Source: Planctomycetales bacterium (GTDB taxonomy: Bacteria; Planctomycetota; JAKEIC01). Taken from it: a stretch of DNA of 64,000 nucleotides. The notes under the pieces are model-generated. The model made no database searches, was not told the origin of the DNA, and saw only the letters and a list, made by a program, of their open reading frames with translations. The stretch is from NCBI GenBank assembly GCA_022614695.1, contig JAKEIC010000342.1, positions 4,012 to 68,011 on the forward strand. The letters are read 5' to 3'. Shown in pieces: positions 10,113 through 49,157 of the stretch. The translations under genes and the position numbers were made by a program. Within the stretch, counting starts at the first letter, position 1, and each line of letters opens with the position of its first letter.

Positions 10113-10639
10113 CAGCCGGGGATCGTAGCAGACCTCGCGAGCAGGAGGTCCGAGTACGACACCGGCACCAGGTCCGCTTCGGCCACTCCGAGCAATCCCC
10201 GCCAGCGCTCGGCCTCGGCCGCGAGCGGGGCAAGGTCGGCGCCCTCCGGCCCCTCGACTTCCACCTCGACGAAGCTCCCGAGCCCTTCCACCTCGTCCAC
10301 GTGGACCTTCACCGCGCCCGCCCGGAAGAGCTCGCGCCGCTTCCCGACGACGACGCGCACCCCGCAGGCGGCCCCGAGGAGGGGTCCCAGCTCCGCCGGC
10401 GGGTCGTGGACGAGGAGCACCCGGCTCTCCCGGGTCCGCGCCCCGTCCGCGCGCTCGTAGAAGACGATCTCCCGGCCGAGGTCCCCCTCGCGGAGCTTGA
10501 GCCGCCCCCGCGGGACGTCGTAGTAGGTGTCCACCTGCCGGCCGGCGTTCGCGAGGCGGGCCCCGGCGGCGACTGCCGCCCGCCGCGCCGCCTCCGGGTG
10601 CCGGCAGCGCGCCTTCCACTCGGCGTTCACGAGGCGCAC
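10112..10639 (-). CDS. CYTH-domain protein (class IV adenylyl cyclase CyaB / triphosphatase-like)
   Basis: C-terminal 175 aa of artefact ORF 10112..13009. VNAEWKAR (ExExK-like), VHVDEVEGLGSFVEVEVE, LVPVSYSDLL collinear with CyaB. GTG at 10639 (alt 10630). Confidence 0.7.
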   Translation of the reverse strand: MRLVNAEWKARCRHPEAARRAAVAAGARLANAGRQVDTYYDVPRGRLKLREGDLGREIVFYERADGARTRESRVLLVHDPPAELGPLLGAACGVRVVVGKRRELFRAGAVKVHVDEVEGLGSFVEVEVEGPEGADLAPLAAEAERWRGLLGVAEADLVPVSYSDLLLARSATIPG

Positions 10640-15000: not shown

Positions 15001-15016
15001 GATCGCGCCCCGGGAG

Positions 15017-17215: not shown

Positions 17216-17227
17216 GATCGCGCCGTG
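17210..17227 (+). promoter_or_regulatory. conserved intergenic junction AAGTAGGATCGCGCCGTG (stop TAG + AGGA SD + 7 nt + GTG start)
   Basis: Identical 18-mer (20-mer with following CG) at 19199..19216, 21407..21424 and 23891..23908. Confidence 0.6.
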
Positions 17228-19204
17228 CGGGGCGCCGCGGCACCGATGACGTCCGGCCGCCCCGTCGAGCCCCGCGCCTTCCTCACCGACTTCGGCCTCG
17301 CGAAGGCCGTCGCGACGGGCTCGAGATTCACGAGGTCCGGCGACGCCCTGGGGACCCCGGCCTACATGTCCCCCGAGCAGGCGCGCGGAGAGGCGTCGTC
17401 GCTCACGCCCGCGACGGACGTCTGGTCGCTCGGAGGGACGCTCTACGAGATGCTGGCCGCTCGGCCGCCGTTCCCGGGGGAATCGGCGGCCGCGATCGTG
17501 GGCGCGCTCCTCACGCGGGAACCCCGGCGGATCCAACGGGACCGGCCGGACGTCCCGCGCGCCCTGGATCGGGTCCTCCGGTGCTCGCTCGCGAAGGCGG
17601 CGCGCGCGCGGTACGCCGACGCCGGGGCTGTCCGCGACGACCTCGACCGGGTCCTCCGGGGCGAGCCGCCCCGGGCGAGGCTCCCGGGCTCGGGGCGCCT
17701 CCAGGCCGCCGCGGCCGTCCTCGCCGCCGGGCTCGCCGCCTGGGTCGCGCTCCTCGTCCTCCCACGCGGGGAGGGCGACTCCCCTTCGCCCGTCTCTCGG
17801 CCCGCCTCCTCGGCGGCCGAGGCTCTCGCGGCGCGGGCCTCCGGCCTCCGGGAGGGCGACCCGGCCGCCGCGGCGCGGCGCCTCGCGGAGGCCCTTGCCC
17901 TGGAGCCGGCGCGTCCGGCGTGGCGCCTCGAACTCGGGCTGCTCCTCTGGGCGCTCGGCGATGGCGAGGCGGCCCGGGCGGAGTGGGGCGGGGTCCCGCG
18001 AGAGGCGCCCGAGGGCCGGCGCGCGAGGCTCTACCGGGCTCTGGAGCCGCTCTTCCAGCTGCGGGAGCCCGGTTCCGCCTCGGGCGCGGACGCGGCCGCG
18101 CTCGGGGAGCTCGCCACCGGGGGCGACGCGGAGGCGCGCCTGGCCCGCGCGGCGCTCGCGTGCTCCTCGAGCCGCTGGCCCGAGACCCGGGCGGCTCTCG
18201 GGGCGCTGGAGGGCTGGGAGCCCGCCCTCCTGCGAGGCTACGTCGAGGCGATGGACCCTCGCGGCGACCCGACGGCGGCCGTCCGTGAGCTGTCCGCCGC
18301 GCTCACCGCCGGGATCCCGTTCGCTTGGGTCTACAGCCTCCGCGGGATGGCCCGCGAGGCCGCGGGCGATCTCCGTGGCGCGGAGGAGGACCAGACGGCG
18401 GCGCTCCGGCTGCTGCCGGCGTTCCCGGATGCGCTCACGAATCGGGGAACCGCCCGCTTGGGGCAGGGCCGGATCGCCGACGCGATCGCGGATCACACCG
18501 AGGCGCTGCGATACCGTCCCCGGGACGCCGCCGCGCTCAACAACCGCGCGAACGCCCGGCGGGCCGCGGGGGACTTGCGAGGGGCGGTCGCGGACTACTC
18601 CGCCGCGCTGGCGATCGAGCCCCACAACCCCGAGATGCTGAACAACCGGGGCCTCGCCCGGGCGATGCTGGGCGAATCGCGGGAGGCCTTCGCCGACGCC
18701 GACGCGGCCGTCCGTCTCCGGCCGGGGATGGCGGGAGCGTGGAACACGCGGGGCCTCGCGCGCTGGGGGCTCGGCGACTCCGCCGGGGCGATCGAGGACT
18801 ATTCGGCGGCCCTGCGCCTGGAGCCGCGGCGGCCGACGACCCTCCTGAGCCGCGCGCTGGCGAGGCGCGACCGCGGCGACCGCGAGAGCGCCCTCCGCGA
18901 CGTGGAGGAGGCGCTCGCCCTCGACCCCTCGCGGGCGACCGCCCACAGCAATCGGGCGCTCCTCCTGGCGGAGGTCGGCCGCGTGGGGGAAGCCCTCGCC
19001 AGCGCCGATCGGGCCCTCGCGATGGACCCGACGGGTGCGTACTACGCCCACGCCGCGCGCGGGCTGGTGCTGCTCCGCGAGGGAAGGAACGCCCAAGCCC
19101 TCGACGAGTTCGGGAAGTTCGATTCGCTCGCGGCGCCGGGGGACCCGCTCCGGAGGGACGTCGCCGTCTGGAAGGCGGAGGCGGCCGGGGGCGTCCCGAA
19201 GTAG
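17225..19204 (+). CDS. kinase C-lobe-only - TM - TPR-repeat protein, paralog 3
   Basis: VRGAAAPMTSGRPVEPRAFLTDFGLAKAVATGSRFTRSGDALGTPAYMSPEQ. GTG start 9 nt after upstream stop with AGGA SD. Confidence 0.7.
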   Translation: MRGAAAPMTSGRPVEPRAFLTDFGLAKAVATGSRFTRSGDALGTPAYMSPEQARGEASSLTPATDVWSLGGTLYEMLAARPPFPGESAAAIVGALLTREPRRIQRDRPDVPRALDRVLRCSLAKAARARYADAGAVRDDLDRVLRGEPPRARLPGSGRLQAAAAVLAAGLAAWVALLVLPRGEGDSPSPVSRPASSAAEALAARASGLREGDPAAAARRLAEALALEPARPAWRLELGLLLWALGDGEAARAEWGGVPREAPEGRRARLYRALEPLFQLREPGSASGADAAALGELATGGDAEARLARAALACSSSRWPETRAALGALEGWEPALLRGYVEAMDPRGDPTAAVRELSAALTAGIPFAWVYSLRGMAREAAGDLRGAEEDQTAALRLLPAFPDALTNRGTARLGQGRIADAIADHTEALRYRPRDAAALNNRANARRAAGDLRGAVADYSAALAIEPHNPEMLNNRGLARAMLGESREAFADADAAVRLRPGMAGAWNTRGLARWGLGDSAGAIEDYSAALRLEPRRPTTLLSRALARRDRGDRESALRDVEEALALDPSRATAHSNRALLLAEVGRVGEALASADRALAMDPTGAYYAHAARGLVLLREGRNAQALDEFGKFDSLAAPGDPLRRDVAVWKAEAAGGVPK

Positions 19205-19216
19205 GATCGCGCCGTG
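19199..19216 (+). promoter_or_regulatory. conserved junction motif copy
   Basis: AAGTAGGATCGCGCCGTG. Confidence 0.6.
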
Positions 19217-21412
19217 CGGGGCGACGCGGCGCCAATGACGTCTGGTCCCCCCCTCGAGCCTCGCGCCTTCCTCACCGACTTCGGCCTGGCGAAAGCCGTC
19301 GCGACCGGCTCGAAGCTGACTCGGACTGGCGAGGCGCTCGGCACGCCGGCCTACATGTCCCCCGAGCAGGCGCGTGGGGAGATCTCCTCGCTCAGCCCTG
19401 CGACGGACGTCTGGAGCCTCGGCTGCGTCCTGTACGAGCTGCTCGCCTCCCGGCCCCCGTGGCAGGGGGGAACGACGGCAGCCGTCATCGCGGGGGTGCT
19501 CGCTCGCGAGCCCGTCCCGATCCGCAGGGTCCGATCTGACGTTCCGCCGGGCGCGGAGTCGGTCCTGATTCAGACCTTGGCGAAGGCGCAGAGAGACCGC
19601 TATCGCGATGCGGGCCCGCTGCGCGACGACCTCGAGCGGTTGCTCCGCGACGAGCGGCCCCTGGCGCGTCGGCCCGGTCGTCGCCGGCGCCTCGTGCTGG
19701 GACTCGGCGCCGCGACCGGCGCGGCGGCGTGCGTCGTGGCCGCCGCCCTGCCCGGGCCGCCGGCGCTCCCGGCATCGTTGGCCCCTCCGCCGACGGCGGG
19801 GCGCGCGGAGAGCATCGTCCAGGCGGCCCTGCGGGTCCGTCCCGCGGACCCGGCGAAGGCCGCCGGACTCCTCGCGGAGGCGCTGGCACTCGAGCCCGCC
19901 TCAGCGGTCTGGCGGCGGGATCGAGCCGACTGTCTCCGCGAGTGCGGGGAGTGGAGGGAGGCGGTGGCCGAATACGACCGGGTCCTGGCGACCCTCCCCG
20001 GCGACCTCGCGGCCCGGTTCGGCCGAGGGCTCGCGAGGTGGCTCGGAGTCTCGACGGGGGACCGCACGCTCGGGAACCCCAAGCCCGACCTCGGGGACGT
20101 CGGCGCCCGCGACCCGGGCTGGCAAGGAGCCCTCTCCCGGGCCATCCTGGCGCACGACGCGGGACGCTGGGAGGACGCTGAGCGCGAGATCGCCTCCGCG
20201 CGCGATCGCACGGCGGCGCTGGGGATCAGCGCGCTGCTCCGCCACCACGGGGGGACCGGAGACCTGGAGGCACAGCGGCGCGCCATCCAGGAGTTCACCC
20301 AGGCGATCGAGCAGGGACCGCCCCAGCGGTGGCTCTACTACGAGCGAGGACACGCCAAGGAGATCGCGGCCGACCTGCGCGGGGCCCTCGAGGACTATAC
20401 GGCCTCGATCGAGCTGTCCGCGGAGTACAGCTCTGCCCGCATCCGACGCGCCCTCCTGCGGGCAAAGCTCGGGGACGCGCCCGGATCGGAGGAGGACTTC
20501 CAGGTCGCCTTCCGGAACACGACTCCCGATGCCGGACTCCACATCGAGAGGGCCTTCGCTCGCGTGACCTTGGGGCGCCTCGCCGAGGCGCTGGGGGACT
20601 ATGACGCCGCCCTCCGCCTGGATCCGGACAACGCCGAGGCCTATCACGGCCGCTCGAGCGTCCGCAAGGACCTGGGGGATCTCCGGGGCGCCGTCGAAGA
20701 TTGCTCCGCGGCGATCCGTCTCCGTCCCGCCTTTCCTGCAGCCTTGAGCAACCGCGGGGCGTGGAGGATGGCTCTCGACGAACCCCGCTCCGCGCTCGAG
20801 GACTTCGAGGCCTCGCTCCGCCTCCGGCCGAACGATCCGATCGCTCGGTTCAACCGGGGAAACGCGCGGTACGCCCTCGGGGAGCTGGCGGGTGCGGTCG
20901 ACGACTACACGGCCGTGATCCCCATGCGTCCGGACTCCCCGGAGCCGCTGAACAATCGTGGCAATGCCCGCCGCTGGCTCGGTGACCTGGCGGGCGCGAT
21001 CGAGGACTACGGCGCCGCGCTCCGCGTCCAGCCCGGGTTCATGCCGGCGCTCCGCAATCGGGCGGAGGCGCGGGAGAGGCTCGGAGACCTCTCCGGGGCA
21101 CTCGCCGACGCGGAGGCCGTGCTGGCGTCGCGTCCGGGATTCCCTCCGTGCCTCGCGACGCGGGCGCTCGTCCTCGCCCGCTCGGGGCGGCTGGACGAGG
21201 CGCTCACGGAGGCGGCCCGGGCCGTGGCGGCGGGCCCGGCGGCTGCGCCCCATGCCCACGCCGCCCGCGGCTTGGCCCTGCTCCGTCAGGGGAGGCTCGC
21301 GGACGCCGTGGCCGAGTTCGAGGAGTTCGAGTCGCACGCAGGCCGCTACGACCCTGTCCGCCCGGACGCCGCGACTTGGAAGGCGGAGGCCCTCCAGGGC
21401 GCCTCGAAGTAG
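19214..21412 (+). CDS. kinase C-lobe-only - TM - TPR-repeat protein, paralog 4
   Basis: Same architecture and junction as paralog 3. FLTDFGLAKAVATGSKLTRTGEALGTPAYMSPEQ. Confidence 0.7.
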   Translation: MRGDAAPMTSGPPLEPRAFLTDFGLAKAVATGSKLTRTGEALGTPAYMSPEQARGEISSLSPATDVWSLGCVLYELLASRPPWQGGTTAAVIAGVLAREPVPIRRVRSDVPPGAESVLIQTLAKAQRDRYRDAGPLRDDLERLLRDERPLARRPGRRRRLVLGLGAATGAAACVVAAALPGPPALPASLAPPPTAGRAESIVQAALRVRPADPAKAAGLLAEALALEPASAVWRRDRADCLRECGEWREAVAEYDRVLATLPGDLAARFGRGLARWLGVSTGDRTLGNPKPDLGDVGARDPGWQGALSRAILAHDAGRWEDAEREIASARDRTAALGISALLRHHGGTGDLEAQRRAIQEFTQAIEQGPPQRWLYYERGHAKEIAADLRGALEDYTASIELSAEYSSARIRRALLRAKLGDAPGSEEDFQVAFRNTTPDAGLHIERAFARVTLGRLAEALGDYDAALRLDPDNAEAYHGRSSVRKDLGDLRGAVEDCSAAIRLRPAFPAALSNRGAWRMALDEPRSALEDFEASLRLRPNDPIARFNRGNARYALGELAGAVDDYTAVIPMRPDSPEPLNNRGNARRWLGDLAGAIEDYGAALRVQPGFMPALRNRAEARERLGDLSGALADAEAVLASRPGFPPCLATRALVLARSGRLDEALTEAARAVAAGPAAAPHAHAARGLALLRQGRLADAVAEFEEFESHAGRYDPVRPDAATWKAEALQGASK

Positions 21413-21424
21413 GATCGCGTCGTG
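21407..21424 (+). promoter_or_regulatory. conserved junction motif copy
   Basis: AAGTAGGATCGCGTCGTG (one mismatch). Confidence 0.55.
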
Positions 21425-23896
21425 CGCGGCGACGCGGCACCGATGACATCCGGCCCCACAGTCGAGCCTCGCGCCTTCCTCGCCGACTTCGGCCTCGCGA
21501 AAGCCGTCGCGACCGGCTCGAAGCTGACCCGCACTGGCCAGGCCCTCGGCACCCCGGCGTACATGTCACCCGAGCAGGCGCGGGGGGAGGTCTCCGCGCT
21601 CACCCCCGCGACGGACCTGTGGAGTCTCGGGTGCGTCCTCTACGAGATGCTCGCCAGCCGCCCACCGTTCGAGGGCGACACGGACGCCGCTGTGGTGGGC
21701 AACGTCATATTCGCGGAATCGCCGAGGCTGCGGACCCTCCGGGCAGACGTCTCGCAGGGCCTCGAGTGCGTCGTGCGGGTATGCCTTGGGAAACGCGTCC
21801 AGGACCGGCACACGGAGGCGGGGGCGCTGAGGGACGACCTCGACCGCGTGCTCCGAGGCGAGAGGCCGACGGCGCGTCCCGACGGGTCATGGGTGCGGAA
21901 GGCCGCGGTGGCCGCCCTCTGCGTGGCCTCGGTCTCGTGGGCCGCTGCCTACACCTTGCGGGGGCGGGGGCCGGAGGGACTCCCCGCGACAGCCTCCTCC
22001 TCGCCTTCGGCCGCGGAGGCGCTCGCGACCAGGGCCCGGGCCCTGCGGCAGTCGGACCCCCGCCGGGCGGCCGAGGTCCTCCGGGCGGCGCTCGAACGGG
22101 AGCCCTCGCGGGACGACCTGCGGCTAGAGAGGGGCCTCCTCCTCTGGGCGGTCGGAGAGAACGCGGAGGCCCGCGAGGAGTGGGGCCGGATCGGGTACGG
22201 GTCCTCCGAAGGGACGCAGGCGAAGCTCTTCCTCGCCCTCGAAGTGTTCTTCCGGATGGCGGGAGCCGAATCGCGGCCGCACCTCGTGGCCCTGAGGGAG
22301 GCCCCGGGCCGGGTGGGAAGTCTCGCTCGCGGGGCCGTCCGGGTGCTCGACAGTGAGTGGTCGCGGGCCCGGGAGGACCTCAGGGGAGTCGAGGGCTGGG
22401 AGGCGCACCTGCTCCGGGGCTACATCGAGAGTTGGGACCCCGCGGGCGACCGCGCGGCGGCGGTGCGGGCGTACGGGTCCGCACTCGACTCCTGGATACC
22501 CTTCGCCTGGGCCTGGAACAACCGCGGCGTCGCGAGGCGGGCGATCGGGGAGGACGCGGGGGCGGTGGCGGACTACAGCCGTGCCCTCCAGCTGGACCCC
22601 CGCTACGCGGAGGCCTGGAACAACCGCGGCAACGCGAAGGGGCGCCTCGGGGACCACGCCGCGGCTGTGGCGGACCTGGACCGCGCCCTCGAGCTCAACC
22701 CGCGGTACGCGGATGCCTGGAACAACCGCGGCGCTGCGAAGCGGGCCCTCGGGGACTACGCGGGGGCTGTGGCCGATCTCGACCGCGCCCTCGAGCTCGA
22801 CCCGCGGTACGCGACGACTTGGCACAACCGCGCTGTCGCGAAGCAGGCCCTCGGCGACCTCGCGGGAGCGATCGCGGACTACGGACGAGGCATCGAGCTG
22901 GACCCGCGGCTCCCGGCGGCCTGGAGCAACCGCGCTGCCGCCAAGGCCGCCCTCGGCGACCTGGCGGGGGCGATGGCAGACTGGGACCAAACCCTCGGGA
23001 TCGACCCGCAGTTCGCGGAGGCGTGGAACAACCGCGGCGGAGCGAAGCGGCTCCTCGGCGACCCCGCCGGGGCCCTGGCGGACCTGGACCATGCCCTCGG
23101 GCTCGACCCGCGGTCCGCGTGGACTTGGCACCACCGTGGACTCGCGAAGCGCGACCTCGGGGACCTCGCGGGGGCGGTGGCGGACCTGGACCGCGCCCTC
23201 GAGCTCGACCCGCGGAACGCGGGGGTCTGGAACAACCGCGGCCTCGCGAAGCGGGACCTCGGGGACCTCGCAGGGGCGGTCGCGGACCTGGACCGCGCCC
23301 TCGAGCTCGACCCGCGGCTCGCGGTATCCTGGTCGAACCGCGGCGCGGCGAAGCGGCGACTCGCGGACCACGCGGGAGCCGTCGCGGATCTCGATCGCGC
23401 CCTCGAGCTCGATCCGCGGAACGCGGCAGGCTGGGCGGACCGCAGCCTCGCGAAGCGGGACCTCGGGGACCCCGCAGGGGCGGTCACGGATGGCAACCGC
23501 TCCCTCGAGCTCGACCCGCGGAACGCGGCGGCCTGGAACATTCGCGGAGTCGCGAAGAGGGACCTCGGAGACCTCGCGGGCGCCCTCGAGGACCTCTCGA
23601 CCGCGATCCGCCTGGCGCCGGAGGGCCCATTCGGCTACAGCAACCGCGGTCTCGTGTTCGCGGGTCTCGGCCGCCTCGACGAGGCCCTCGCCGACGCCGA
23701 GAAGGCCCTCTCGATGGACCCGAAGGGGCCCTACTACGCCTACGCGGCCCGGGGGCTCGTGTTCATCCGGCAGGGGAAGCACGCGGCGGCCCTTGCCGAT
23801 CTCGAGCGCTTCGAGTCGCTCGCGATACCGGCCGACCCGCTCCGGAAGGACGTCGCCGCCTGGAAGGCGGAGGCGGCGCGGGGAGCGCCGAAGTAG
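21422..23896 (+). CDS. kinase C-lobe-only - TM - TPR-repeat protein, paralog 5 (longest TPR array)
   Basis: FLADFGLAKAVATGSKLTRTGQALGTPAYMSPEQ, about 17 very regular 34-aa TPR units (AWNNRG...DLDRALELDPR). Confidence 0.7.
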   Translation: MRGDAAPMTSGPTVEPRAFLADFGLAKAVATGSKLTRTGQALGTPAYMSPEQARGEVSALTPATDLWSLGCVLYEMLASRPPFEGDTDAAVVGNVIFAESPRLRTLRADVSQGLECVVRVCLGKRVQDRHTEAGALRDDLDRVLRGERPTARPDGSWVRKAAVAALCVASVSWAAAYTLRGRGPEGLPATASSSPSAAEALATRARALRQSDPRRAAEVLRAALEREPSRDDLRLERGLLLWAVGENAEAREEWGRIGYGSSEGTQAKLFLALEVFFRMAGAESRPHLVALREAPGRVGSLARGAVRVLDSEWSRAREDLRGVEGWEAHLLRGYIESWDPAGDRAAAVRAYGSALDSWIPFAWAWNNRGVARRAIGEDAGAVADYSRALQLDPRYAEAWNNRGNAKGRLGDHAAAVADLDRALELNPRYADAWNNRGAAKRALGDYAGAVADLDRALELDPRYATTWHNRAVAKQALGDLAGAIADYGRGIELDPRLPAAWSNRAAAKAALGDLAGAMADWDQTLGIDPQFAEAWNNRGGAKRLLGDPAGALADLDHALGLDPRSAWTWHHRGLAKRDLGDLAGAVADLDRALELDPRNAGVWNNRGLAKRDLGDLAGAVADLDRALELDPRLAVSWSNRGAAKRRLADHAGAVADLDRALELDPRNAAGWADRSLAKRDLGDPAGAVTDGNRSLELDPRNAAAWNIRGVAKRDLGDLAGALEDLSTAIRLAPEGPFGYSNRGLVFAGLGRLDEALADAEKALSMDPKGPYYAYAARGLVFIRQGKHAAALADLERFESLAIPADPLRKDVAAWKAEAARGAPK

Positions 23897-23908
23897 GATC
23901 GCGCCGTG
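23891..23908 (+). promoter_or_regulatory. conserved junction motif copy (before ggt)
   Basis: AAGTAGGATCGCGCCGTG. Confidence 0.6.
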
Positions 23909-38187: not shown

Positions 38188-38213
38188 AGCCTCGGGAGGT
38201 TAGCGCCCGAACC

Positions 38214-41200
38214 ATGCCGCTCCGCGGCGATCTCGCCAGCTTCAGCCTCGCCGAGATATTCCAGTCCCTATCCATGAACCAGTCCTCCGGCACCCTCATG
38301 GTGAGCGACGGGGAGAACCGGCGGCTGCTGGTCTTCCGCAACGGCGTCCTCTCCCTCGTCGGCCACGGGCGCGCCTACGTCCCGAAGCTCGGGGAGTTCC
38401 TCCTGCGCAAGAACGTGATCGGGGAGGAGGCCCTCGCGAAGGCCCTCGCCCTCCAGAAGGAGAGCGGGGGGCTCCTCGGCGAGGTGCTGGTCCGCGAGAA
38501 GATCGTCACCGAGAAGCAGATCCGCGAGGCGGTCCGCGAGAAGCTCGAGGAGGAGATCTACGACCTCTTCCTCTGGAAGAACGCCTTCTTCGAGTTCAAG
38601 AAGGACCAGTTCCCGGAGGGCACGGAGGCGGCGGGGGCGGCCCCGGCGGCCGGGGCGGCCGCGCCCGAACGGTCGGAGACCGGCACCGCGCTCACGTTCA
38701 ACACGAGCACGATCCTCATGGAGGCGGTCCGCCGCGTGGACGAGTGGGGGCGGATCACCGAGAGCGTGCCGACCCTCCGGATGATCTTCGTCCCGCGGGC
38801 CGAGGCCGCGCCGGAGCGCCCCGTCGGGGAGTGCCCGATCCCGCCCGCCCGCCTCTGGCCTCTGCTCAAGCGCGAGAACGCCGTCCGGGACCTGATCGAG
38901 GCCTGCGCGGTCTCGAAGTTCGACGTCTGCAAGAGCCTCGACGCCCTGGTCCGCGTGGAGGAGGTCTCGCCGCTCCCCGCGGGGGACCTGGACCTCGCGT
39001 TCCAGGACGCGCTCCGCGGCTCCCGCTACGACCTCGGGGCGCGCTACATCGAGTACGCGATGGACCTGGGGGGCCAGGCGAGGGACGTCCGCGAACGGAT
39101 GGTGAAGGCATACCTCGGCGAGCGGGGCGTCGGGGCCGCGCCCGACCCGTGCCGGCTGACCGGGACGGTCGAGCGCTTCGACCTCCCGGGCTTCCTCCAC
39201 GCCGTGCTCCTGAGACGCCTCACGGGGACGCTCCGGGTGCGCGACATCGAGAGCGAGAGGATCCTCTACGTCTCCCCGGAGGAGGTCATGCTCCTCTCCC
39301 GAGGCCCGCGCGAGACCCCCAAGCTCGGGCAGGTGCTCCTGCGCGCGGAGAAGCTCACGCCCACCGACCTGGACCGGGCGCTGACGGTGCAGCGCGAGGA
39401 CCCCCGTCGGCTCGGCGAGATCCTCGTGGACCGCGGGGTCCTCCGGACCGAGGAGGTCGAGGAGGCCGTCCTCACGAAGGCGGTCCAGGAGCTCTTCGAC
39501 CTGTTCCTCTGGCGGAACGCCTACTTCGAGTTCACCACCCGGACCCGGGCCGAGGAGCTCACGGCGCCCGGGGCGAGGCCCGTCCGGCTCGCCCTCTCGG
39601 GGGGGACGCTCAAGGAGCTGGTCGCCCGGATCGTGAGGGCGGGGGACATCCTCGCCAAGGTCTCCTCCTCGCGGGCGATCCTGACGCCCGTCCGCAAGGA
39701 GGGCCGCCACTCCCGGGGCCGCACGACCGAGGAGGACGTGCTCGCGCTCGTGAACGGCGTCCGGACCGTCGGCGACATCTTCCGGCTCACGCCCCGCTCC
39801 TCGGCCGAGGTCTGCGAGGTGCTCTACGCCCTCATGAACCAAGGGGCGGTCCGGCCGCTCACGCTCGCGGAGGCCCGTGAGGCGGCCGAGGCGGCGCTCG
39901 CCGAGGGCCAGGTGGAGATCGGCCTCAAGATGTGCGCCCACGGGCAGGAGCTCGCGCCCGACGACCCGGGGCTCAAGACGATCTTCGAGGAGGCGCAGGC
40001 CCGCCGCCCCGACGCGGGGGAGGCCACGCGCGAGTACCGGCTCGAGGGGGACCTTGAGAGCTTCAGCCTGGCCGAGCTCGTGCAGTCCCTCTACCTGAAC
40101 AAGCACTCGGGCACGTTGCGCGTGAAGGACGGCCGGCGCGAGAAGATCGTCTACTTCGCGCAGGGCACGATCTCGCTCCTCACGCGCGGCCACCAGGAAG
40201 TCTCGCGCCTCGGCGAGATCCTGGTGGACGCCGGGAAGGTCTCCGAGTACGACGTCGAGCGCGCCCTCGAGGAGCAGCAGGGGACGGGCAAGCGCCTCGG
40301 CGAGCTGCTGGTGGAGCGCGGGCTCGCGACCGAGGAGGACATCCAGGAGGCGGTCGAGGAGAAGGTCCGGGACGAGCTGTTCGACGTGTTCCTCTGGCGA
40401 AACGCCACGTTCGAGTTCCTGAAGAACTACTTCCCGGACGAGTTCACGAACCCAGACGCCCCGGTGACGCGCCTCGCGCTCGACACGACGCGCACCCTCA
40501 TGGCGGCCATCTCGCGCATTGAGAAGTGGGAGGAGCTCACGCGGGAGCTCTCGAGCGTGAAGGCGGTCTACCGCCGCACGGGCGTCGCGCCGGGACCCGA
40601 GCTCTCCCGCCGGGCGCGGGTCCTCCTCGAGCCTGTGGACGGGCGGCGGACCGTCGAGGAGCTGCTCGAGGAGTCGCCGGCGGGCCGCTTCGCCGCCGCC
40701 CAGGCTCTCGCGGAGCTCAAGCGCGCGAACCTCGTCCGGCCGCTCGTCCTCGACGAGGTGAACGCCGAGGCCGAGCGGGCGTTCGAGGAGCGCGACTTCG
40801 AACGGTGCGTGAAGTACTACGAGTACGCGCTGCAGCTCGACGAGGGGAACGAGTTCCTCAAGCGCTACATCGCCGAGGCCAAGGGCAACCTCTCGCAGTT
40901 CGACGCGATGCGGGTGCGGATGAAGCCCTTCGACCTCGTGAACCTCTTCCGGACGATCGTCCGGGGGAGCGCCACGGGGACACTCTCGGTGCGGGACGGG
41001 GCGAGCAGCCGGCTCGTCTACCTCGGGCAGGGCGAGGTGGCGTGGCTCGACGAGGGACCGCGGGAGGGGCCGTCGCTCGCCGACGTGCTCCGGCAGGGCG
41101 GGCGCGTGCCGGAGAAGGCGCTGACCCGGGCGGTCGAGTTCCAGAAGCGGACCGGCCGCGACCTCCTCGAGGTGCTCGAGAAGCAGGGGGCGCTCACCCC

Positions 41201-42704
41201 GGAGGCGGGCCAGGAGGCGCGGTCCGAGGCCGCCCGCGCCATGCTCTGGGACCTCTTCTCCTGGCGCGAGGCCTCGATCGAGTTCGAGCGCTCGAGCTAC
41301 CCGCTCCGGCTCGACGAGGCCTCGCTCCCGGTCTCGCGGGCGGCCCTCCCCGTGGCCGACCTCCTCTCCGGGCTCGCCGAGCGGCGCGAGGAGTGGGACC
41401 GCTACCGGAATGCCCTCCCCTCCGAGAGGCTCATCCTCGTCGCCGCCGAGCGCGAGAGGGGGGCGCCGCTGCTCCGCCGCCACAAGGAGAACCCGACGCT
41501 GCCCCTCGTGGACGGCCGGCGGACGGTCGCGCAAGTGGTCCGCGAGTCGGGCCTCTCCGAGTTCGACGCCTTCCGCTCCCTCCACGACCTGGTGACGGGC
41601 CGGGTCGTCCGGGCCCTCACGGCGGAAGAGTCGGTGAAGGCCGCCGAGAACGCCTGGGTCTTCAAGGACCTCCCCGCCTGCGAGGCCTTCTACGAGCACG
41701 CCCTCGAGGTGGACCGCGGCAACGCCGAGGTGCTGCGGAGGCTCGAGCTGCTGCGGCGCGGCCAGGAGACGCAGGTGCGGCGGCGCCTCACCGAGGAGTT
41801 CGGCCGCAACAAGGACCTCTCGGCGATCCTCGAGGCGGTCCGGCGCGACGCGCGATGGGGGACGCTCGAGGCGACCGTGCAGGACTCGGTGCGCTGGGTC
41901 CACTTCGCGGAGGACCGGGTGACTCTACTCTCGCGCGGGAGCCGGCCCGGTCGCCGCCTCGGCGAGATTCTCGTCGAGGCCCTGCGGGCCACCCCCGCCC
42001 AGATCGAGAAGGCGCTGGCCGCGCAGCCCCGGCTCAAGAAGCGCCTCGGGGAGATCCTCGTGCTCCAGGGGGTCCTCGGCGAGCGCGACCTGGTGGCGAT
42101 GGTCCGCGAGAAGATCCTGGAGGACCTCCACGAGCTCTATTCCTGGGAGGACGCCGTCGTGCGCTTCGCCGCGGGGGACCCGCCCGCGGAGATGACGGCG
42201 GCCGGGGCGCCGGTCGCGGCCTGGGAGGGGGACGCGGCGGCCCTGATCGCCGAGGCCCTCGAGCGGGAGAGGACCTGGCCCGACATCGCGACGACCATCC
42301 CCTCGGGGAACGCGATCTTCGGGCGCAAGGACCGGCCGGCGGGCGGCGGGGAGGCGCGCCGAGGGGAGGCCGGAGGGACGGGCGGGGCGAAGAACCCCGT
42401 CCTCGCGCACATCACCGGGCGCCGGTCGGTCGCCGAGGTCTGCGCCCGGGCGGGGGTCCCCCGCTACGAGGCCCTCGCGGCGTTCCTCCGGCTGATCCGG
42501 AACGACGTGATCCGCCCGCTCGAGCCGGAGGAGTGCCGCCGGCGGGGCGAGGAGGCCTACCTCGCGAACGACCTCCCGGCCGCGGCGACGTTCCTCAGGT
42601 TCGCGGTGGAGCTGGACGGTGCCGACGAGCGGGCCCGCAAGCGCCTCGAGCGGATCGAGGCCACCCTCGGCCGGGCGAGGGTCGGTGGGGGAGGGCGGGA
42701 ATGA
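38214..42704 (+). CDS. giant multi-module protein: 5 x (DUF4388 + 2 MshEN-type motifs), putative multivalent c-di-GMP receptor/scaffold
   Basis: GDLASFSLAEIFQSL...GTLMV (DUF4388) recurs five times (LEGDLESFSLAELVQSLYLNKHSGTLRV etc.). Each is followed by two xLGExLVxxGxLxxxxLxxALxxQ motifs (KLGEFLLRKNVIGEEALAKALALQ, RLGEILVDAGKVSEYDVERALEEQ ...). Ten MshEN-like motifs in total. Confidence 0.8.
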   Translation: MPLRGDLASFSLAEIFQSLSMNQSSGTLMVSDGENRRLLVFRNGVLSLVGHGRAYVPKLGEFLLRKNVIGEEALAKALALQKESGGLLGEVLVREKIVTEKQIREAVREKLEEEIYDLFLWKNAFFEFKKDQFPEGTEAAGAAPAAGAAAPERSETGTALTFNTSTILMEAVRRVDEWGRITESVPTLRMIFVPRAEAAPERPVGECPIPPARLWPLLKRENAVRDLIEACAVSKFDVCKSLDALVRVEEVSPLPAGDLDLAFQDALRGSRYDLGARYIEYAMDLGGQARDVRERMVKAYLGERGVGAAPDPCRLTGTVERFDLPGFLHAVLLRRLTGTLRVRDIESERILYVSPEEVMLLSRGPRETPKLGQVLLRAEKLTPTDLDRALTVQREDPRRLGEILVDRGVLRTEEVEEAVLTKAVQELFDLFLWRNAYFEFTTRTRAEELTAPGARPVRLALSGGTLKELVARIVRAGDILAKVSSSRAILTPVRKEGRHSRGRTTEEDVLALVNGVRTVGDIFRLTPRSSAEVCEVLYALMNQGAVRPLTLAEAREAAEAALAEGQVEIGLKMCAHGQELAPDDPGLKTIFEEAQARRPDAGEATREYRLEGDLESFSLAELVQSLYLNKHSGTLRVKDGRREKIVYFAQGTISLLTRGHQEVSRLGEILVDAGKVSEYDVERALEEQQGTGKRLGELLVERGLATEEDIQEAVEEKVRDELFDVFLWRNATFEFLKNYFPDEFTNPDAPVTRLALDTTRTLMAAISRIEKWEELTRELSSVKAVYRRTGVAPGPELSRRARVLLEPVDGRRTVEELLEESPAGRFAAAQALAELKRANLVRPLVLDEVNAEAERAFEERDFERCVKYYEYALQLDEGNEFLKRYIAEAKGNLSQFDAMRVRMKPFDLVNLFRTIVRGSATGTLSVRDGASSRLVYLGQGEVAWLDEGPREGPSLADVLRQGGRVPEKALTRAVEFQKRTGRDLLEVLEKQGALTPEAGQEARSEAARAMLWDLFSWREASIEFERSSYPLRLDEASLPVSRAALPVADLLSGLAERREEWDRYRNALPSERLILVAAERERGAPLLRRHKENPTLPLVDGRRTVAQVVRESGLSEFDAFRSLHDLVTGRVVRALTAEESVKAAENAWVFKDLPACEAFYEHALEVDRGNAEVLRRLELLRRGQETQVRRRLTEEFGRNKDLSAILEAVRRDARWGTLEATVQDSVRWVHFAEDRVTLLSRGSRPGRRLGEILVEALRATPAQIEKALAAQPRLKKRLGEILVLQGVLGERDLVAMVREKILEDLHELYSWEDAVVRFAAGDPPAEMTAAGAPVAAWEGDAAALIAEALERERTWPDIATTIPSGNAIFGRKDRPAGGGEARRGEAGGTGGAKNPVLAHITGRRSVAEVCARAGVPRYEALAAFLRLIRNDVIRPLEPEECRRRGEEAYLANDLPAAATFLRFAVELDGADERARKRLERIEATLGRARVGGGGRE

Positions 42705-42913
42705 GGGTGCGCGTGCCGAGCGTGTGGAGAGCCCCCGGGTCCGGTGGTAGACTCCCGCCCCCCCGCGGGGCGAGTGCGGGGAGGTGACGCATCGCCGATC
42801 GCGAGACATTCTCCCGGCGCGCGACGGACCGGCTGCGGGCGCTCGCCCGCTCCATCCAGCAGAAGGAGGAGGTCGAGCACTCCTTCGCGGCCACCCGGCG
42901 CAAGCAGTTCAAG

Positions 42914-43609
42914 ATGCTCCCGGACCCGCCGCAGGTCCCGGGCTACGACTTCGCCTGCTACTATAACCCGGCCGCGACGCTCTCCGGCGACTTCTTCGAT
43001 TTCATCCCGGTCTCCGAGCACGAGCTCGGGATCGTCGTGGGGGACGTGACGGGTCACGGGCTCGAAGCGGCGTTCATCATGGCGGCCGCGAAGAAGGCCA
43101 TCAGCATCCTCGGCCAGGGGAAGTCCTCCCCGCGCGAGGTGCTGGCCGCGGCGAACGAGAACCTCCACGCGGACTTGGATGAGATGACGTTCGTCTCGGT
43201 CTTCTACGGGATCCTCGACCGGAGGACGAAGGTCCTCTCGCACGTCCGCGCGGGCCACAACCCGACGATCCTCCTCAACCCGGACCGGCCGAAGCCGGTG
43301 GAGGAGCTGCGGCCCCGCGGGATCGTGGTCGGGATGCAAAGGGGGGAGTCGTTCCTGAAGTGCACCGAGGAGGTGAAGACGCCTCTACAGGTGGGCGACA
43401 CCGTCGTCCTGTACACCGACGGGATCATCGAGGCCAAGAACGCCGCCGGCGTCGAGTACGGCAAGGAGCGGATGATCCGCCTCCTGCAGGAGCACGGCCG
43501 CAAGAGGATGGCCGAGACCTTCGGCGCCTCGATCGAGGACTTCGCCTCCTTCCTCGACGGGGCCGAGCAGGAGGACGACATCACGCTGGTCGGGTTCCGG
43601 GTCCTGTGA
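42914..43609 (+). CDS. PP2C-family (SpoIIE/PPM) Ser/Thr phosphatase
   Basis: SGDFFDF...GDVTGHGLEAAFIMAAA...YTDGIIEA...DDITLVGFRV. 231 aa. Confidence 0.8.
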   Translation: MLPDPPQVPGYDFACYYNPAATLSGDFFDFIPVSEHELGIVVGDVTGHGLEAAFIMAAAKKAISILGQGKSSPREVLAAANENLHADLDEMTFVSVFYGILDRRTKVLSHVRAGHNPTILLNPDRPKPVEELRPRGIVVGMQRGESFLKCTEEVKTPLQVGDTVVLYTDGIIEAKNAAGVEYGKERMIRLLQEHGRKRMAETFGASIEDFASFLDGAEQEDDITLVGFRVL

Positions 43610-45880: not shown

Positions 45881-46180
45881 CTACCCCTGCGGCGGCGGGC
45901 CCCCCACGACGTCGTAGTGCTCCCGGAACCAGGACTCGGCGGTCCGGAACGCCTCGTCCTCGGAGGGGCCGATCCAGAACATCTCGGTCCGGGCGGGGGA
46001 GCCGAGCCCCGGCCAGCGCGCCGCGTCCTTCACGTCCGGGGGGAACCGGACCGAGACGACCCAGCGGGTCGTCCGCTCGTGCGCGGAGAGGATGACCGTC
46101 GTCTCGAGCGCGGGCTTCACCCCGCGGACCCGGATCGTGACGCGCCTTTCGCCCACGACGGCAGTGTACCTCGAGGTCAC
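45881..46180 (-). CDS. hypothetical 99-aa protein
   Basis: GTG 46180 overlaps the stop of the upstream TPR gene (GTGA). C-terminal tail of artefact ORF 45881..48010. No recognised domain. Confidence 0.35.
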   Translation of the reverse strand: MTSRYTAVVGERRVTIRVRGVKPALETTVILSAHERTTRWVVSVRFPPDVKDAARWPGLGSPARTEMFWIGPSEDEAFRTAESWFREHYDVVGGPPPQG

Positions 46181-47916
46181 CGCCGCGGGGCGGCCGATTC
46201 TCCCTCGCACTCCGCGAGGAGGGCGCGGATCTCGTCGGACCGTGGGTGCTCCGGGGCGAGGCGCAGGAAGGACCGGAGGAGCCCGCTCGCGCGTTCCCGG
46301 TCGCCCGGGCCGCCCCGCTCGGCCAGGGCGCGCCCCAGGTTCGCGAGCACCGGCGGCGCCTCGGGAAGCGCGCGCAGCGCCCCCTCCCAGTCGGCGATCG
46401 CGCCCTCGGGATCCCCGGCGTTCGCTCGGGCGATGCCCCGGTGAGTCAGGGCGACCCCGTGGCCCGGGGCCATCCGGAGGGAAGCCTCGATGTCGGCGAG
46501 GCCCGCCTCCGGGTCGCCCAGTTCCCCTCGCGTGATCCCCCGGTTCACCAGGGCCTCGACGAGCCGGGGGTCGCGCCGCACCGCCGCGTCGAAGTCCTCG
46601 AGCGCGCCCGGAAGGTCGCCCCGGGCCTTCCGCACGTTCCCCCGGACGTAGCGGGCGAACGGGAAGCCTGAGATCCGCGCGAGGGCGGCCTCCGCGTCCG
46701 CCAGGGCGCCCTCCATGTCGCCCGCCCGGAACCGGAGCGCGCCGCGGTTCGCGAGGGCGTCGGCCCAGTCGGGCGACCGCCGGATGGCGGCGTCCATGTC
46801 GGCGAGAGCTCCGGCCCGGTCGCCGAGGGCCTCGAGAGCGATCGCGCGCGCGAGCAGCGCCTCGGGAGCCCCGGGGGCGAGCCGAAGGGCGGCGTCCGCC
46901 TCGCGCAGGCCCCCCGCCGGGTCCCCGAGGCTGTTCCGCGCCTCCGCACAAGCGACGTAGGCCCAGGAGAAGGGAATCCCGATCGCCAGGGCCCGCTCGA
47001 ACTCCCGCAACTCGCCCGTGCGGTCCTCCCGGTCCTGCAGCCGCAGGAGCCACCCCCGGAGCGCCGCCGCTTCCCAGCCCTCCTCCGCCGCGAGGAGGCG
47101 AAGGCCCTCGTCCGATCGTCCGGAGTCGCCCAGGACGAGGGCGCGAGCGAGCCGTCCCCAACGTCCCTCGCCCTTCGCCGCCGCCGCGAGGTCGGGGTCC
47201 TCGATCCCGCCCGCCCACCGCGTGAAGCGCTCGAACGCGCGCCAGAAGCGCGCCTCGGTAGCCTCCGGGGCGTCGTCCGAGACCCGGCCCCACGCGTCCT
47301 GGGCCTCCGCCGACCGTCCCGCGGCCCAGAGGAGGCGGCCCCGCTCGACGAGCCAAGCGTTCCGCCCGGCGTGGGCGGGCTCGAGGGTGAGGGCGCGGCC
47401 CAGGCACTCGGCGCCGGCCGACGGGTCGCTCGCCCGGAGGGCCCCGGCGCGCTCGACAAGGGCCTCGGCCTCGGTAGGACGCCGATCGGGGCCCCGGTCC
47501 GCCGGAGGAGCGACCGGCGTCGGTCGAAGGGCGGCCGCGGCCGACACCGCGACCGTGAGAAGCACCGCCGCCCCGAGGATCCGGCGGCCCGCCCCCGGCG
47601 GCCGCGCGCGCGGGCGCTCTCCGCGGAGCAAGCGTTCGAGGTCGTCGCGGAGGGCTCCCGCGTCTGGGAACCGCGAACGAACGCCCCTCGCAAGGGCCAC
47701 GCGCAGCAGCCGGTCGAGGGCGGCGGGGACGTCCGGGCGGGTCCTCCGGATCGGGGCCGGCTCCCTCGTCAGGATCCCGCCGATCACGGCCGCCGTCGTC
47801 TCCCCGCCCCACGGCGGCCGACCGGCGAGCGACTCGTAGAGGACGACCCCGAGACTCCAGACGTCCGTCCCGGGGCCGAGGCTCGAGACATCGCCGCGAG
47901 CCTGCTCGGGAGACAT
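46177..47916 (-). CDS. kinase C-lobe-fragment - TM - TPR-repeat protein, paralog 6 (possibly 5'-degraded)
   Basis: First ATG gives MSPEQARGDVSSLGPGTDVWSLG... Homologous FLTDFGLAKSVATGSRF coding continues in frame upstream to about 48060 with no ATG/GTG/TTG. Confidence 0.55.
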   Translation of the reverse strand: MSPEQARGDVSSLGPGTDVWSLGVVLYESLAGRPPWGGETTAAVIGGILTREPAPIRRTRPDVPAALDRLLRVALARGVRSRFPDAGALRDDLERLLRGERPRARPPGAGRRILGAAVLLTVAVSAAAALRPTPVAPPADRGPDRRPTEAEALVERAGALRASDPSAGAECLGRALTLEPAHAGRNAWLVERGRLLWAAGRSAEAQDAWGRVSDDAPEATEARFWRAFERFTRWAGGIEDPDLAAAAKGEGRWGRLARALVLGDSGRSDEGLRLLAAEEGWEAAALRGWLLRLQDREDRTGELREFERALAIGIPFSWAYVACAEARNSLGDPAGGLREADAALRLAPGAPEALLARAIALEALGDRAGALADMDAAIRRSPDWADALANRGALRFRAGDMEGALADAEAALARISGFPFARYVRGNVRKARGDLPGALEDFDAAVRRDPRLVEALVNRGITRGELGDPEAGLADIEASLRMAPGHGVALTHRGIARANAGDPEGAIADWEGALRALPEAPPVLANLGRALAERGGPGDRERASGLLRSFLRLAPEHPRSDEIRALLAECEGESAAPRR

Positions 47917-48100
47917 GTAGCTCGGGGTCCCGAGCGCCTGGCCGCTCCGGGTGAATCTCGAGCCGGTCGCGACGGACTTCGCGAGGCCGAAGTCGGTGAG
48001 GAAGGCGCAAGGCTCGATGCGAGGAGCCCCTTCGAGGGGCTCAGGGCAAGCCGGCGACGCGGCCAGGGCGTTGGCGACGTCGCGCGCGCGCTCGATGGCG

Positions 48101-48391
48101 CTACTCCGCGAGCTGCTCTCCGGCCTTCTCGACGTCCCCGCGGCGGCCGATGAGTGTCACGCGATCGCCCTCCGCCAGGACGGTCGCCCCGTCCGGGATG
48201 AGCAGGTCCCGCCCGCGTCGGATCGAGATGATCAGGGCGTCCTTCGGAAGCCGCATCTCCCGGAGGTGCTTCCCGACGAGGCCCGACTCGGCCGACACGT
48301 CCACGTGGCGCAGCTCCGAGTCGTGTTCCACGAGGTCGCGGAGAAGCTCCTCGAGATCCGTGCGGATGGTGGCGAGATCACGCTTGGGCAC
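48101..48391 (-). CDS. stand-alone TrkA-C (RCK_C) domain protein
   Basis: 96 aa. LVGKHLREMRLPKDALIISIRRGRDLLIPDGATVLAEGDRVTLIG. GTG start with AAGGAGG SD. Confidence 0.7.
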   Translation of the reverse strand: MPKRDLATIRTDLEELLRDLVEHDSELRHVDVSAESGLVGKHLREMRLPKDALIISIRRGRDLLIPDGATVLAEGDRVTLIGRRGDVEKAGEQLAE

Positions 48392-48408: not shown

Positions 48409-48501
48409 TGGCGGAGAGGCGGGGATTCGAACCCCGGAGGCAGGTATAACCCGCCTAACGGCTTAGCAAGCCGCCGCATTCGACCACTCTGCCACCTCTC
48501 C
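48409..48501 (-). tRNA. tRNA-Ser (anticodon GCU)
   Basis: 93 nt. Acceptor GGAGAGG/CCUCUCC, discriminator G plus encoded CCA. Anticodon loop UUGCUAA. Long variable arm GGCGGG-UUAUA-CCUGCC. T-loop GGGGUUCGAAUCCCC. Confidence 0.85.
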
Positions 48502-48533: not shown

Positions 48534-49103
48534 TCAGAGGGCCGGTTGGCCCAGGACGTAGCCCACCTTCCGCGCCCACTGGGACTCGGGCCAGCGGTCC
48601 ATGATCCGACGCCACGGCTCTTTCGCCGCGTCCAGCTCCTTCTTCTGCCGCACGCGGCTGATCCCCCACCAGTAGCAGGCCTCGGGGGCCCGCTCGGCGC
48701 CGGGGGCGTCGGCCACCTGCCGGAACAGCTCGTGCGCCTCGTCGTAGCGCTTCTCGCCCATCGCGAGGATCGCGCGGCCGAACGTGAGCTCCGGCAGGAG
48801 GTCGCGCGGGGGGAGGTACCCGACCACGAGGTGCGCCGGCCTCTCGTCGGCATCCGTCACGACGAGCCCGGGGAGCCAGCGCACGTTCAGCTTCTTGGAC
48901 AGCTCGATGTGCTTCCCGCTCTCGAGCCTCGCGGGGACGAACCTCTCCGAGATCTCCTTCTCGACGGCCGGGTCTGGATACGTCACGGCATCCATCGTCT
49001 TGCAGCCGAGTCACGTCGGGCTGTGCAGGAAGAGGAAGATCGGCTTCCCGGTCTCCTTCGCCCTCTTGCGGGCCTGGTCCCAGCTCTCGGTCCAGGGGAT
49101 CAT
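48534..49103 (-). CDS. thioredoxin-fold (Thioredoxin_7/DsbD-gamma-like) selenoprotein with U-L-G-C redox motif. In-frame TGA at 49011..49013.
   Basis: ATG 49103 with AAGGAGG SD. MIPWTESWDQARKRAKETGKPIFLFLHSPT-TGA-LGCKTMDAV... continues in the same frame into ORF 48534..48995. TGA sits exactly at the first-Cys position of the family WCxxC motif. Confidence 0.7.
48976..48993 (-). other. SECIS-candidate hairpin 17 nt downstream of UGA 49011..49013
   Basis: GGAUGC-CGUGAC-GUAUCC (6-bp stem including one G-U, 6-nt loop). Confidence 0.3.
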
Positions 49104-49157
49104 CTCGGCCTCCTTCGCTGCCGGCGCACCGGGGTCCAGTATAGTGCGCCGGTTTCC

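Follow-up and report, generated by a model that had tools for sequence, protein, structure and literature searches.

A probable selenocysteine-containing thioredoxin-like gene, split in public annotation, in a 64-kb stretch of Planctomycetales DNA

Does a TGA triplet lying inside a thioredoxin-fold reading frame end one short gene ahead of another, or is it read as selenocysteine (Sec, U) in a single, longer one? The question is raised by a locus on the minus strand of a 64,000-nucleotide stretch of contig JAKEIC010000342.1 (assembly GCA_022614695.1, Planctomycetales bacterium), referred to here, at its full length, as the window. In public assemblies the region is annotated as a gene of 30 residues and a gene of 153 residues (related loci L026 and L028), and the open reading frame (ORF) listing of the window gives just the 153-residue piece, from an ATG at 48995. 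The comparison of this locus with its homologues indicates that both pieces belong to one gene, which is very probably a genuine, mis-annotated selenocysteine-containing thioredoxin-like gene.

One reading frame across a conserved TGA

The complete coding sequence occupies 48534..49103 of the minus strand and comprises 189 codons, the 31st being that of Sec, plus a terminal TGA. Its start ATG (49103-49101) is preceded, at a distance of 5 nucleotides, by the Shine-Dalgarno sequence AAGGAGG (49109..49115, minus strand), which is read directly in the DNA; GGAGG-type motifs are found at the equivalent position in several homologous loci. The frame runs through MIPWTESWDQARKRAKETGKPIFLFLHSPT to the in-frame TGA (49013-49011), continues with LGCKTMDAVTYPD... 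and closes at the terminal TGA (48536-48534, minus strand), a genuine stop that is TAG in the orthologue L028. The internal TGA (49011..49013, minus strand), which is kept in homologous loci and aligned to cysteine (Cys), would be read as U31 and opens the redox motif U-L-G-C (UxxC; 49002..49013, minus strand), placed by prediction at the N-terminal end of helix alpha-1 in the thioredoxin fold. The initial annotation of the window, made from the sequence alone, had described the AAGGAGG motif, the ATG at 49103 and a TGA exactly at the first Cys of a CXXC motif, and had proposed Sec recoding. All of these elements were found at the positions given, and the proposal of recoding is now backed by conservation of the TGA, Cys-bearing homologues, coding sequence on both sides and covariation in a downstream hairpin.

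Sixty-four homologues were found among the 5.8 billion proteins searched, each with about 150-156 residues and with a coverage of only about 80% of the query. The assumption that every database homologue of about 150 residues is a Sec form was dropped, since one of them, P0230, turned out to be a Cys form truncated where its contig ends; the counts of Sec forms were consequently restricted to loci whose DNA, taken from genomes and metagenomes, was read (window, L001/L007, L005, L008-L013, L015-L021, L023, L024, L028 and L030 for the TGA-bearing ones). In 19 of 19 such loci, the window included, the alignment shows an in-frame TGA at this position; they come from at least six phyla, with identities as low as 30-35%. 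Their sources, metagenome-assembled genomes (MAGs) or genomes, are labelled Myxococcales, Armatimonadota, Acidobacteriota, Thermoanaerobaculia, Ca. Eisenbacteria, Ca. Caldisaccharidevorator and Geobacter, and the nearest relative of the window gene is labelled Planctomycetales. The internal codon is TGA in every locus, while the terminal stops are TGA or TAG across the family.

Both flanks of the TGA are conserved as coding sequence. On its upstream side lie about 30 conserved codons in the same frame (M-I-x-W-x-x-x-W-[DE]-x-A ... [RK]-P-[ILV]-[FLM]-L), and after it comes -x-G-C, the redox motif across the TGA loci being U-[LMGSTI]-G-C. Among 11 close relatives, variation in the 28 codons before the TGA is highest at the third position (0.46 against 0.35 and 0.33), and synonymous differences in these codons number 298, compared with 110 in a shifted frame, with a similar pattern downstream. 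The comparison with L028, a 93%-identical orthologue from another MAG (GCA_040961615.1), points in the same direction: sense codons differ synonymously in 29 cases and non-synonymously in 7 over the whole gene, and in 4 cases and none, respectively, within the 30 N-terminal codons, and the internal TGA is retained while the terminal stop has switched from TGA to TAG. This is the pattern expected of a Sec codon, and it argues both against a pseudogene and against a separate protein of 153 residues. The initial annotation had itself named a real start at M48995, with a different redox motif, as the outcome that would speak against it; the homologues, which keep the 30 upstream codons in frame, contradict such a start.

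Cys-bearing relatives, whose alignment had also been suggested as a check, were obtained with a profile of the C-terminal part of the protein, run exhaustively with HMMER against 1.84 billion representative proteins. At E <= 1e-10, 600 representatives were found, Cys forms included, and 30 full-length matches were retrieved, of 186-215 residues plus one of 368. In 23 of these 30 a C-x-x-C motif coincides exactly with the Sec position (as in FSPT-CGGC-TAMETVTYP, FSPD-CLGC and FSPE-CVGC), the rest having CxxS, SxxC or neither; in one Cys-form relative the codon at the site was confirmed in the DNA as TGC. Recent switching between Sec and Cys was considered for 90%-identity clusters mixing members of 188 and 150 residues, and was unsupported by the one case checked.

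A hairpin downstream of the UGA

The RNA following the UGA can fold into a hairpin resembling the bacterial selenocysteine insertion sequence (bSECIS), UGGAUGC-CGUGAC-GUAUCCA (48975..48994, minus strand), with a core at 48993-48976, an outer U-A pair and a loop at 48987-48982. The core, GGAUGC-CGUGAC-GUAUCC, had been noticed previously as starting 17 nucleotides after the UGA and is indeed present there. The stem has 6-7 base pairs and the 6-nucleotide loop carries G and then U at positions 2-3, with a spacing of 23 nucleotides from UGA to loop and a folding energy of -7.6 kcal/mol. Published bSECIS limits are a loop of 3-9 nucleotides, a stem of 4-16 base pairs, a G in the first two loop positions, a spacing of 16-37 nucleotides and a minimum free energy <= -7.5 kcal/mol (PMC13188914 section 5). 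The bSECIS-type examination proposed in the initial annotation thus places the hairpin within these limits, barely so for the energy and with a filter background of about 20%; across the family, a strict filter of this type was passed by 15 of 18 loci against that background of 20%.

Taken alone, the hairpin is no better than chance; the comparative and codon-usage evidence lies far beyond it. All 14 distinct sequences of the close clade form the complete set of six core pairs (84 of 84 cells, against only 19-47% in slid registers), and both-sided changes occur in three of the six (A-U/G-C; U-A/A-U/G-U; A-U/G-U/G-C), the loop CGUGAC being invariant, synonymous third positions included. The hairpin of Geobacter sp. 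DSM 9736 keeps this register in an AT-richer context, with AGUUAC as its loop. A more distant clade (L009, L010, L011 and L013) shows a different hairpin, GCGGC-UGGAN-GCCGC, placed 16-17 nucleotides after the UGA instead of 23, so that the element has undergone remodelling inside a single protein family. The members of that clade, labelled Armatimonadota, Acidobacteriota and Eisenbacteria, carry the motifs U-G-G-C and U-S-G-C, with the TGA at about 3088-3094 of their loci.

Codon usage in the stem is also unusual. Codons ending in A or T make up only 7 of the 188 sense codons of the gene (95% GC at third codon positions, GC3), and three rare ones, GAU38, UAU42 and CCA43, sit in the stem precisely where A or U is needed; in the window, GAU accounts for 6.5% of Asp codons, UAU for 3.6% of Tyr codons and CCA for 1.2% of Pro codons. 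L028 keeps GAU38 and UAU42, though its GAU84 has changed to GAC, and where CCG has replaced CCA43 a U-G pair still forms.

Five Cys-form genes encoding a near-identical peptide form 6, 6, 5, 4 and 3 of the six in-register pairs, so that the complete hairpin is present in 15 of 15 Sec forms versus 2 of 5 Cys forms. The two Cys forms with a full in-register hairpin are L031 (about 50-110) and L032 (about 690-750), whose Cys codons are TGC and TGT, respectively; their hairpins may be fossil SECIS elements, if the switch from Sec to Cys was recent, or the conserved peptide may itself favour such a structure. On the comparison of these sequences, selection on the hairpin at the level of the RNA is shown.

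The field calls bacterial selenoprotein genes on a set of features (PMC13188914 section 5, PMC12013277), and those found here are homologues with TGA, homologues with Cys, coding conservation on both sides of the TGA and a bSECIS-like hairpin.

Alternative readings and genomic context

Several points weigh against the reading as a selenoprotein gene. Folded as a single sequence, the hairpin region has z = -0.8, which is not significant; about 20% of random positions in the window, with its GC content of 74%, pass a bSECIS-type filter; and the hairpin matches no Rfam family, at the gathering threshold on the window or at E <= 10 on 48850-49150, the Rfam output containing only tRNA-Ser and noise. 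The statistics in favour of the hairpin (covariation score reached by 0 of 500 shuffles, Fisher p = 0.009 for Sec against Cys forms) overstate independence, the sequences being related to one another. The stem overlaps codons of the conserved peptide M-D/G/E-A/T-V-T-Y/L/H-P and, given this peptide and the two Cys forms that keep the hairpin, its conservation could partly reflect protein constraint or shared ancestry. The AlphaFold model discussed below is that of a Cys-form homologue, P0204, which is 32% identical to the window protein over residues 1-179. The selenoprotein family to which the gene is assigned below is listed as 'predicted with high confidence' and not as experimentally verified (2026 review, PMC13188914). 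Finally, selA, selB, selD and tRNA-Sec were not found within the 64-kb window (about 30 genes, GC3-based calls, three Pfam batches and a tRNA scan).

Scans of 16 related loci for tRNA genes likewise gave no tRNA-Sec. The sole tRNA of the window is an ordinary tRNA-Ser(GCT), not a tRNA-Sec, located at 48409-48501 (minus strand), 33 nucleotides after the selenoprotein stop; this adjacency recurs in the close relatives L026 and L028 but is absent from the other family loci. In Geobacter sp. DSM 9736 (L030), the Sec-form gene lies at 10001-10453 and is annotated as a hypothetical protein of 150 residues, and a selA gene (Se-cys_synth_N and SelA domains) is found at 13800-15209, with the family gene 3.3 kb upstream of it, a proximity that may be coincidence; the presence of selA indicates that this genome decodes Sec. 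As for the organism of the window, the purifying selection acting on the gene suggests that it decodes Sec, and Sec decoding by a Planctomycetales-like organism is what the gene would imply.

The alternative that survives best, improbable as it is, accepts the family as real and takes the gene of the window for a relic or for a gene otherwise read: the machinery would have been lost, the UGA would terminate, or a near-cognate tRNA would supply Cys or Trp. The absence of Sec machinery genes from the 64 kb is in line with it, as is the frequency of Sec/Cys exchange and of loss of the Sec trait in bacteria (PMC1794560). The purifying selection seen in the lineage, upstream of the UGA as well as overall, speaks against a relic, and so does L028, in which the internal TGA outlasted the change of the terminal stop and the costly rare codons of the stem were retained while another GAU drifted to GAC. 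Moreover, all close-clade relatives examined have TGA and not TGC or TGT, the easy escape after loss of Sec. With regard to altered decoding, TGA is the true stop of the gene itself and of neighbouring genes, so that no genome-wide reassignment has taken place. That TGA is an ordinary stop in the window had been stated in the initial annotation; this holds for ggt, for the M16 gene and for the end of the selenoprotein gene, and does not hold for the kinase-like array also named there, which uses TAG.

Still less probable is the public annotation itself, that is, a peptide of 30 residues ending at the TGA and a TPR-type (tetratricopeptide repeat) protein of 153 residues from ATG 48995, produced with no recoding. 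Gene callers give exactly these two products in L026 and L028, relatives of 150 residues are named 'tetratricopeptide repeat protein' in RefSeq (WP_223905972.1 and WP_214174094.1; GenBank MCI0343460.1 is a 'hypothetical protein'), and an ATG at the position of M37 is kept in most homologues. This conserved Met codon, however, belongs to the hairpin stem and has no Shine-Dalgarno sequence before it (GGCUGCAAGACG-AUG). The product that it would open begins in the middle of the thioredoxin fold, lacking strand beta-1 and the active-site turn, and scores below the Pfam cut-off for Thioredoxin_2 (25.5 versus 27 bits), whereas the protein sequence of the 30 upstream codons is conserved, in frame and across phyla, and aligns to the N-terminus of the full-length Cys forms and of DsbD-gamma. 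The comparative data already rule out a third alternative, namely that the TGA reflects faulty sequencing or assembly, or a mutation that has lately made the gene a pseudogene. A lone in-frame stop in metagenome-derived sequence would a priori often point to an artefact, but two public assemblies (L026, GCA_973348535.1, and L027) have the identical sequence, which excludes a one-off read error, 18 further independent loci, of different samples and phyla, carry the same TGA, and the frame shows the conservation pattern of coding sequence with no frameshifts or further stops.

Some neighbouring genes of the window deserve mention. Four tandem paralogues in one reading frame (14867-23896, plus strand) encode proteins of 652-817 residues with 37-49% pairwise identity, in which Pfam detects the C-lobe only of a protein kinase (profile positions 139-206, from the DFG motif) and many TPRs; the N-lobe and the catalytic loop appear to be missing. 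After the ...K-TAG end of each paralogue come a conserved leader (GATCGCGCCGTGCG...) and a start MTSG..EPRAFLTDFGLAK, and the same junction sequence precedes the first copy (about 14990) and ggt at 23897. Recoding of TAG, suspected from five contiguous high-GC3 ORFs in one frame, was rejected, these being tandem paralogues with true TAG stops and starts of their own. A similar gene combining half a kinase with TPRs (46177-48156, minus strand) lies beside the selenoprotein gene. Further, a protein of 1,504 residues with five DUF4388 (PatA_N) repeats is encoded at 38190-42704 (plus strand), followed by a SpoIIE-type phosphatase at 42788-43609, a pair that is kept in the relatives L026 and L028.

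Predicted product and relation to known systems

Two domains are recognised in the product. The first, of thioredoxin fold and DsbD-gamma/Thioredoxin_7 type, extends over residues ~2-105 (48789..49100, minus strand) and is supported by Pfam, by sequence matches in the PDB and by Foldseek. The initial annotation had assigned the gene to this fold, in agreement with the matches of the 189-residue product, with Cys placed at the TGA, to Thioredoxin_2 (PF13098; 1.2e-12, 48.5 bits against a cut-off of 27, residues 15-104, spanning the TGA), Thioredoxin_7 (2.5e-11) and Thioredox_DsbH (1.7e-6). The second domain, all-helical and TPR-like (residues ~106-189; 48537..48788, minus strand), is indicated by helices in the P0204 model and by weak matches to TPR_2, TPR_6 and TPR_16, to the YbgF model TIGR02795 (34.5 bits, below the cut-off) and, in the PDB, to the TPRs of YbgF/CpoB (2xev, E = 0.014). 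No signal peptide or hydrophobic segment was found at the N-terminus, the thioredoxin domain beginning at residue 2, which suggests a cytoplasmic location. Gene neighbourhoods were not conserved across the family loci examined, so that the gene context yields no functional clue.

From these features the following mechanism can be proposed. Translation would start at ATG 49103 and, on reaching the UGA at 49013-49011, the hairpin located 16-17 nucleotides downstream would serve as a bacterial SECIS element, recruiting SelB-GTP-Sec-tRNA(Sec), so that Sec would be inserted in place of termination and translation would run on to the real stop at 48534. The result would be a single cytoplasmic selenoprotein of 189 residues, with a DsbD-gamma-type thioredoxin fold, the active site U31-L-G-C34 and then a five-helix TPR-like domain. 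Judging from fold and motif, the product is most likely a thiol/selenol-disulfide oxidoreductase, in which Sec31 would attack a disulfide (or sulfenic acid) of the substrate and Cys34 would resolve the mixed selenenylsulfide, while the TPR-like domain probably binds protein partners. We infer Sec insertion, which needs selA, selB, selC and selD in the genome, and the redox chemistry from the sequence and the modelled fold.

The best match among solved structures, in sequence as well as in structure, is the C-terminal (gamma) domain of E. coli DsbD (PDB 2fwf, 4ip6 and 1vrs). By sequence the match has E = 8e-8 and places the UGA on the first Cys of W-C-V-A-C. The model of P0204 (predicted local distance difference test score, pLDDT, 94.8; predicted template modelling score, pTM, 0.89) shows a thioredoxin fold with C31-V-G-C34 directly before a helix at 32-41 and then five helices at 98-185, and its top Foldseek matches are DsbD-gamma domains, with a root-mean-square deviation (rmsd) of 1.9-2.9 A over about 109 columns and 26-27% identity. 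The flanks of the active site are also shared, namely GKP-[IV]-x-L before it and a T-[FY]-x-D-P turn after it. DsbD-gamma, however, forms the periplasmic end of a membrane electron transporter built of three domains (a periplasmic alpha domain, a transmembrane beta domain and gamma itself), whereas the window protein is free-standing, without the signal peptide, transmembrane domain and alpha domain of DsbD and with the TPR-like domain in addition; it has Sec in place of the DsbD-gamma Cys and, before the active site, Thr or Ser in place of Trp. Of the three DsbD domains only a gamma-like one is present, and NF001419 scored 30.5 against a cut-off of 330, aligning at profile positions 463-568 only.

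A related N-terminal domain of Thioredoxin_7 type is found in other bacterial selenoproteins, the Trx7/PDZ (seleno)protein NF041199 and the VPGUxxT proteins NF041382 and NF041383. In Trx7/PDZ proteins the Sec takes the second position (CxxU) and the C-terminal domain is a PDZ, as opposed to UxxC and TPR in the window protein. No model of NCBIfam release 20 was reached by the window protein, nor by the Cys forms; the best score was that of NF041199 (trx7_PDZ_seleno, 34.6 against a cut-off of 300), the others being 20.7 against 350 for NF041382, 27.2 against 275 for NF041383 and 25.8 against 805 for NF045694.

The chaperedoxin CnoX/YbbN is cytoplasmic, like the predicted product, and is likewise built of a thioredoxin fold followed by a TPR-type helical domain; the E. 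coli protein (3qou) and its Salmonella orthologue (3qdn) are the only two-domain matches of the P0204 model in Foldseek (E = 2e-7, about 190 columns, 11-12% identity). Their rmsd of 11-12 A corresponds to a different arrangement of the domains, their thioredoxin domain is of the classical type and not of the DsbD-gamma/Trx7 type, and no PDB sequence match of the window protein to CnoX/YbbN was found at E <= 1. E. coli CnoX lacks a CXXC active site and has SQHC instead. In JGI annotation one member of the family is called 'thioredoxin-like negative regulator of GroEL'. The likeness to CnoX/YbbN is one of architecture only, not of membership. A bolder interpretation, which we regard as doubtful, would be that the clade of the window (U-L-G-C, in high-GC MAGs of Planctomycetales, Myxococcales and Acidobacteriota type) is an obligately Sec-using cytoplasmic 'seleno-chaperedoxin', whose TPR-like domain would hold clients as in CnoX/YbbN, and that the family, with its hundreds of 50%-identity clusters, would be among the most widespread bacterial selenoproteins still missed by annotation. 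In that case the protein would be functionally distinct from anything characterised, and a widespread family would make the fossil SECIS hairpins of Cys forms a record of frequent Sec/Cys switching.

The chief value of the gene as a very probable selenoprotein gene lies in annotation, since Sec members of the family are split or truncated in GenBank and RefSeq, and NCBIfam has no model for it, though the family has been catalogued since 2004-2006. The data now available (19 TGA loci, 600 representative clusters, two SECIS variants and a confident two-domain fold) suffice for such a model. The catalogues do not record how broad the family is, nor its TPR-like domain, its two SECIS variants or the ongoing truncation of its Sec members. 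A free-standing cytoplasmic DsbD-gamma-like selenoprotein with a TPR-like domain is a reasonable target for study, and would be no surprise to specialists.

The family in question is that of the 'Thiol:disulfide interchange protein', a selenoprotein family reportedly predicted by computation by Kryukov and Gladyshev in 2004. It comprised three deltaproteobacterial sequences in the survey of Zhang et al. 2006 (PMC1794560) and is entered in Table 1 of the 2022 and 2026 catalogues (PMC9312934 and PMC13188914) with PF13098, the motif UxxC and WP_011366075.1 of Geobacter metallireducens. Supplement file 4 of PMC1794560 gives ...LLDFFNPGUIGCKQMDAVAYPD... for G. metallireducens and MIKWETEMSKALARGQAEKRTILLDFFNPGUIGCKQMDAVTYPN... 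for G. uraniumreducens. In BLASTP, the window protein matches the selenoprotein of G. uraniumreducens with E = 4e-33 over residues 1-179 of 189 and that of G. metallireducens with E = 6e-32 over residues 2-176, and U31-L-G-C34 aligns U on U with the U-I-G-C of both; this end-to-end alignment makes the window protein a member of the known family. A chain of profiles leads likewise from the window clade to P0204 and from there to the Geobacter Sec forms, while a search with the N-terminal half of the Geobacter sp. DSM 9736 protein gave 10 candidates, the catalogued protein not being among them.

The window protein resembles the Geobacter members in its length (about 186-190 residues), the Sec position in U-x-G-C, the K-x-M-D-A-V-T-Y-P that follows and the two-domain build, and it shares the register of the hairpin with the relative in strain DSM 9736, the loop being CGUGAC in the window and AGUUAC in that strain. 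On the other hand, it is only 31-32% identical to the Geobacter members, and its clade stands apart from them (U-L-G-C, ...KLES[AG]K...RWLPG...), with only Sec forms among the loci examined. Its source is high in GC and its nearest relative carries a Planctomycetales label, whereas the members in the 2006 survey were deltaproteobacterial (PMC1794560), and a TPR-like domain is not mentioned in the catalogues. On sequence grounds, then, the gene of the window is a new member of the predicted 'Thiol:disulfide interchange protein' selenoprotein family and not a new kind of system, and the range of this family extends well past the three deltaproteobacterial sequences of 2006.

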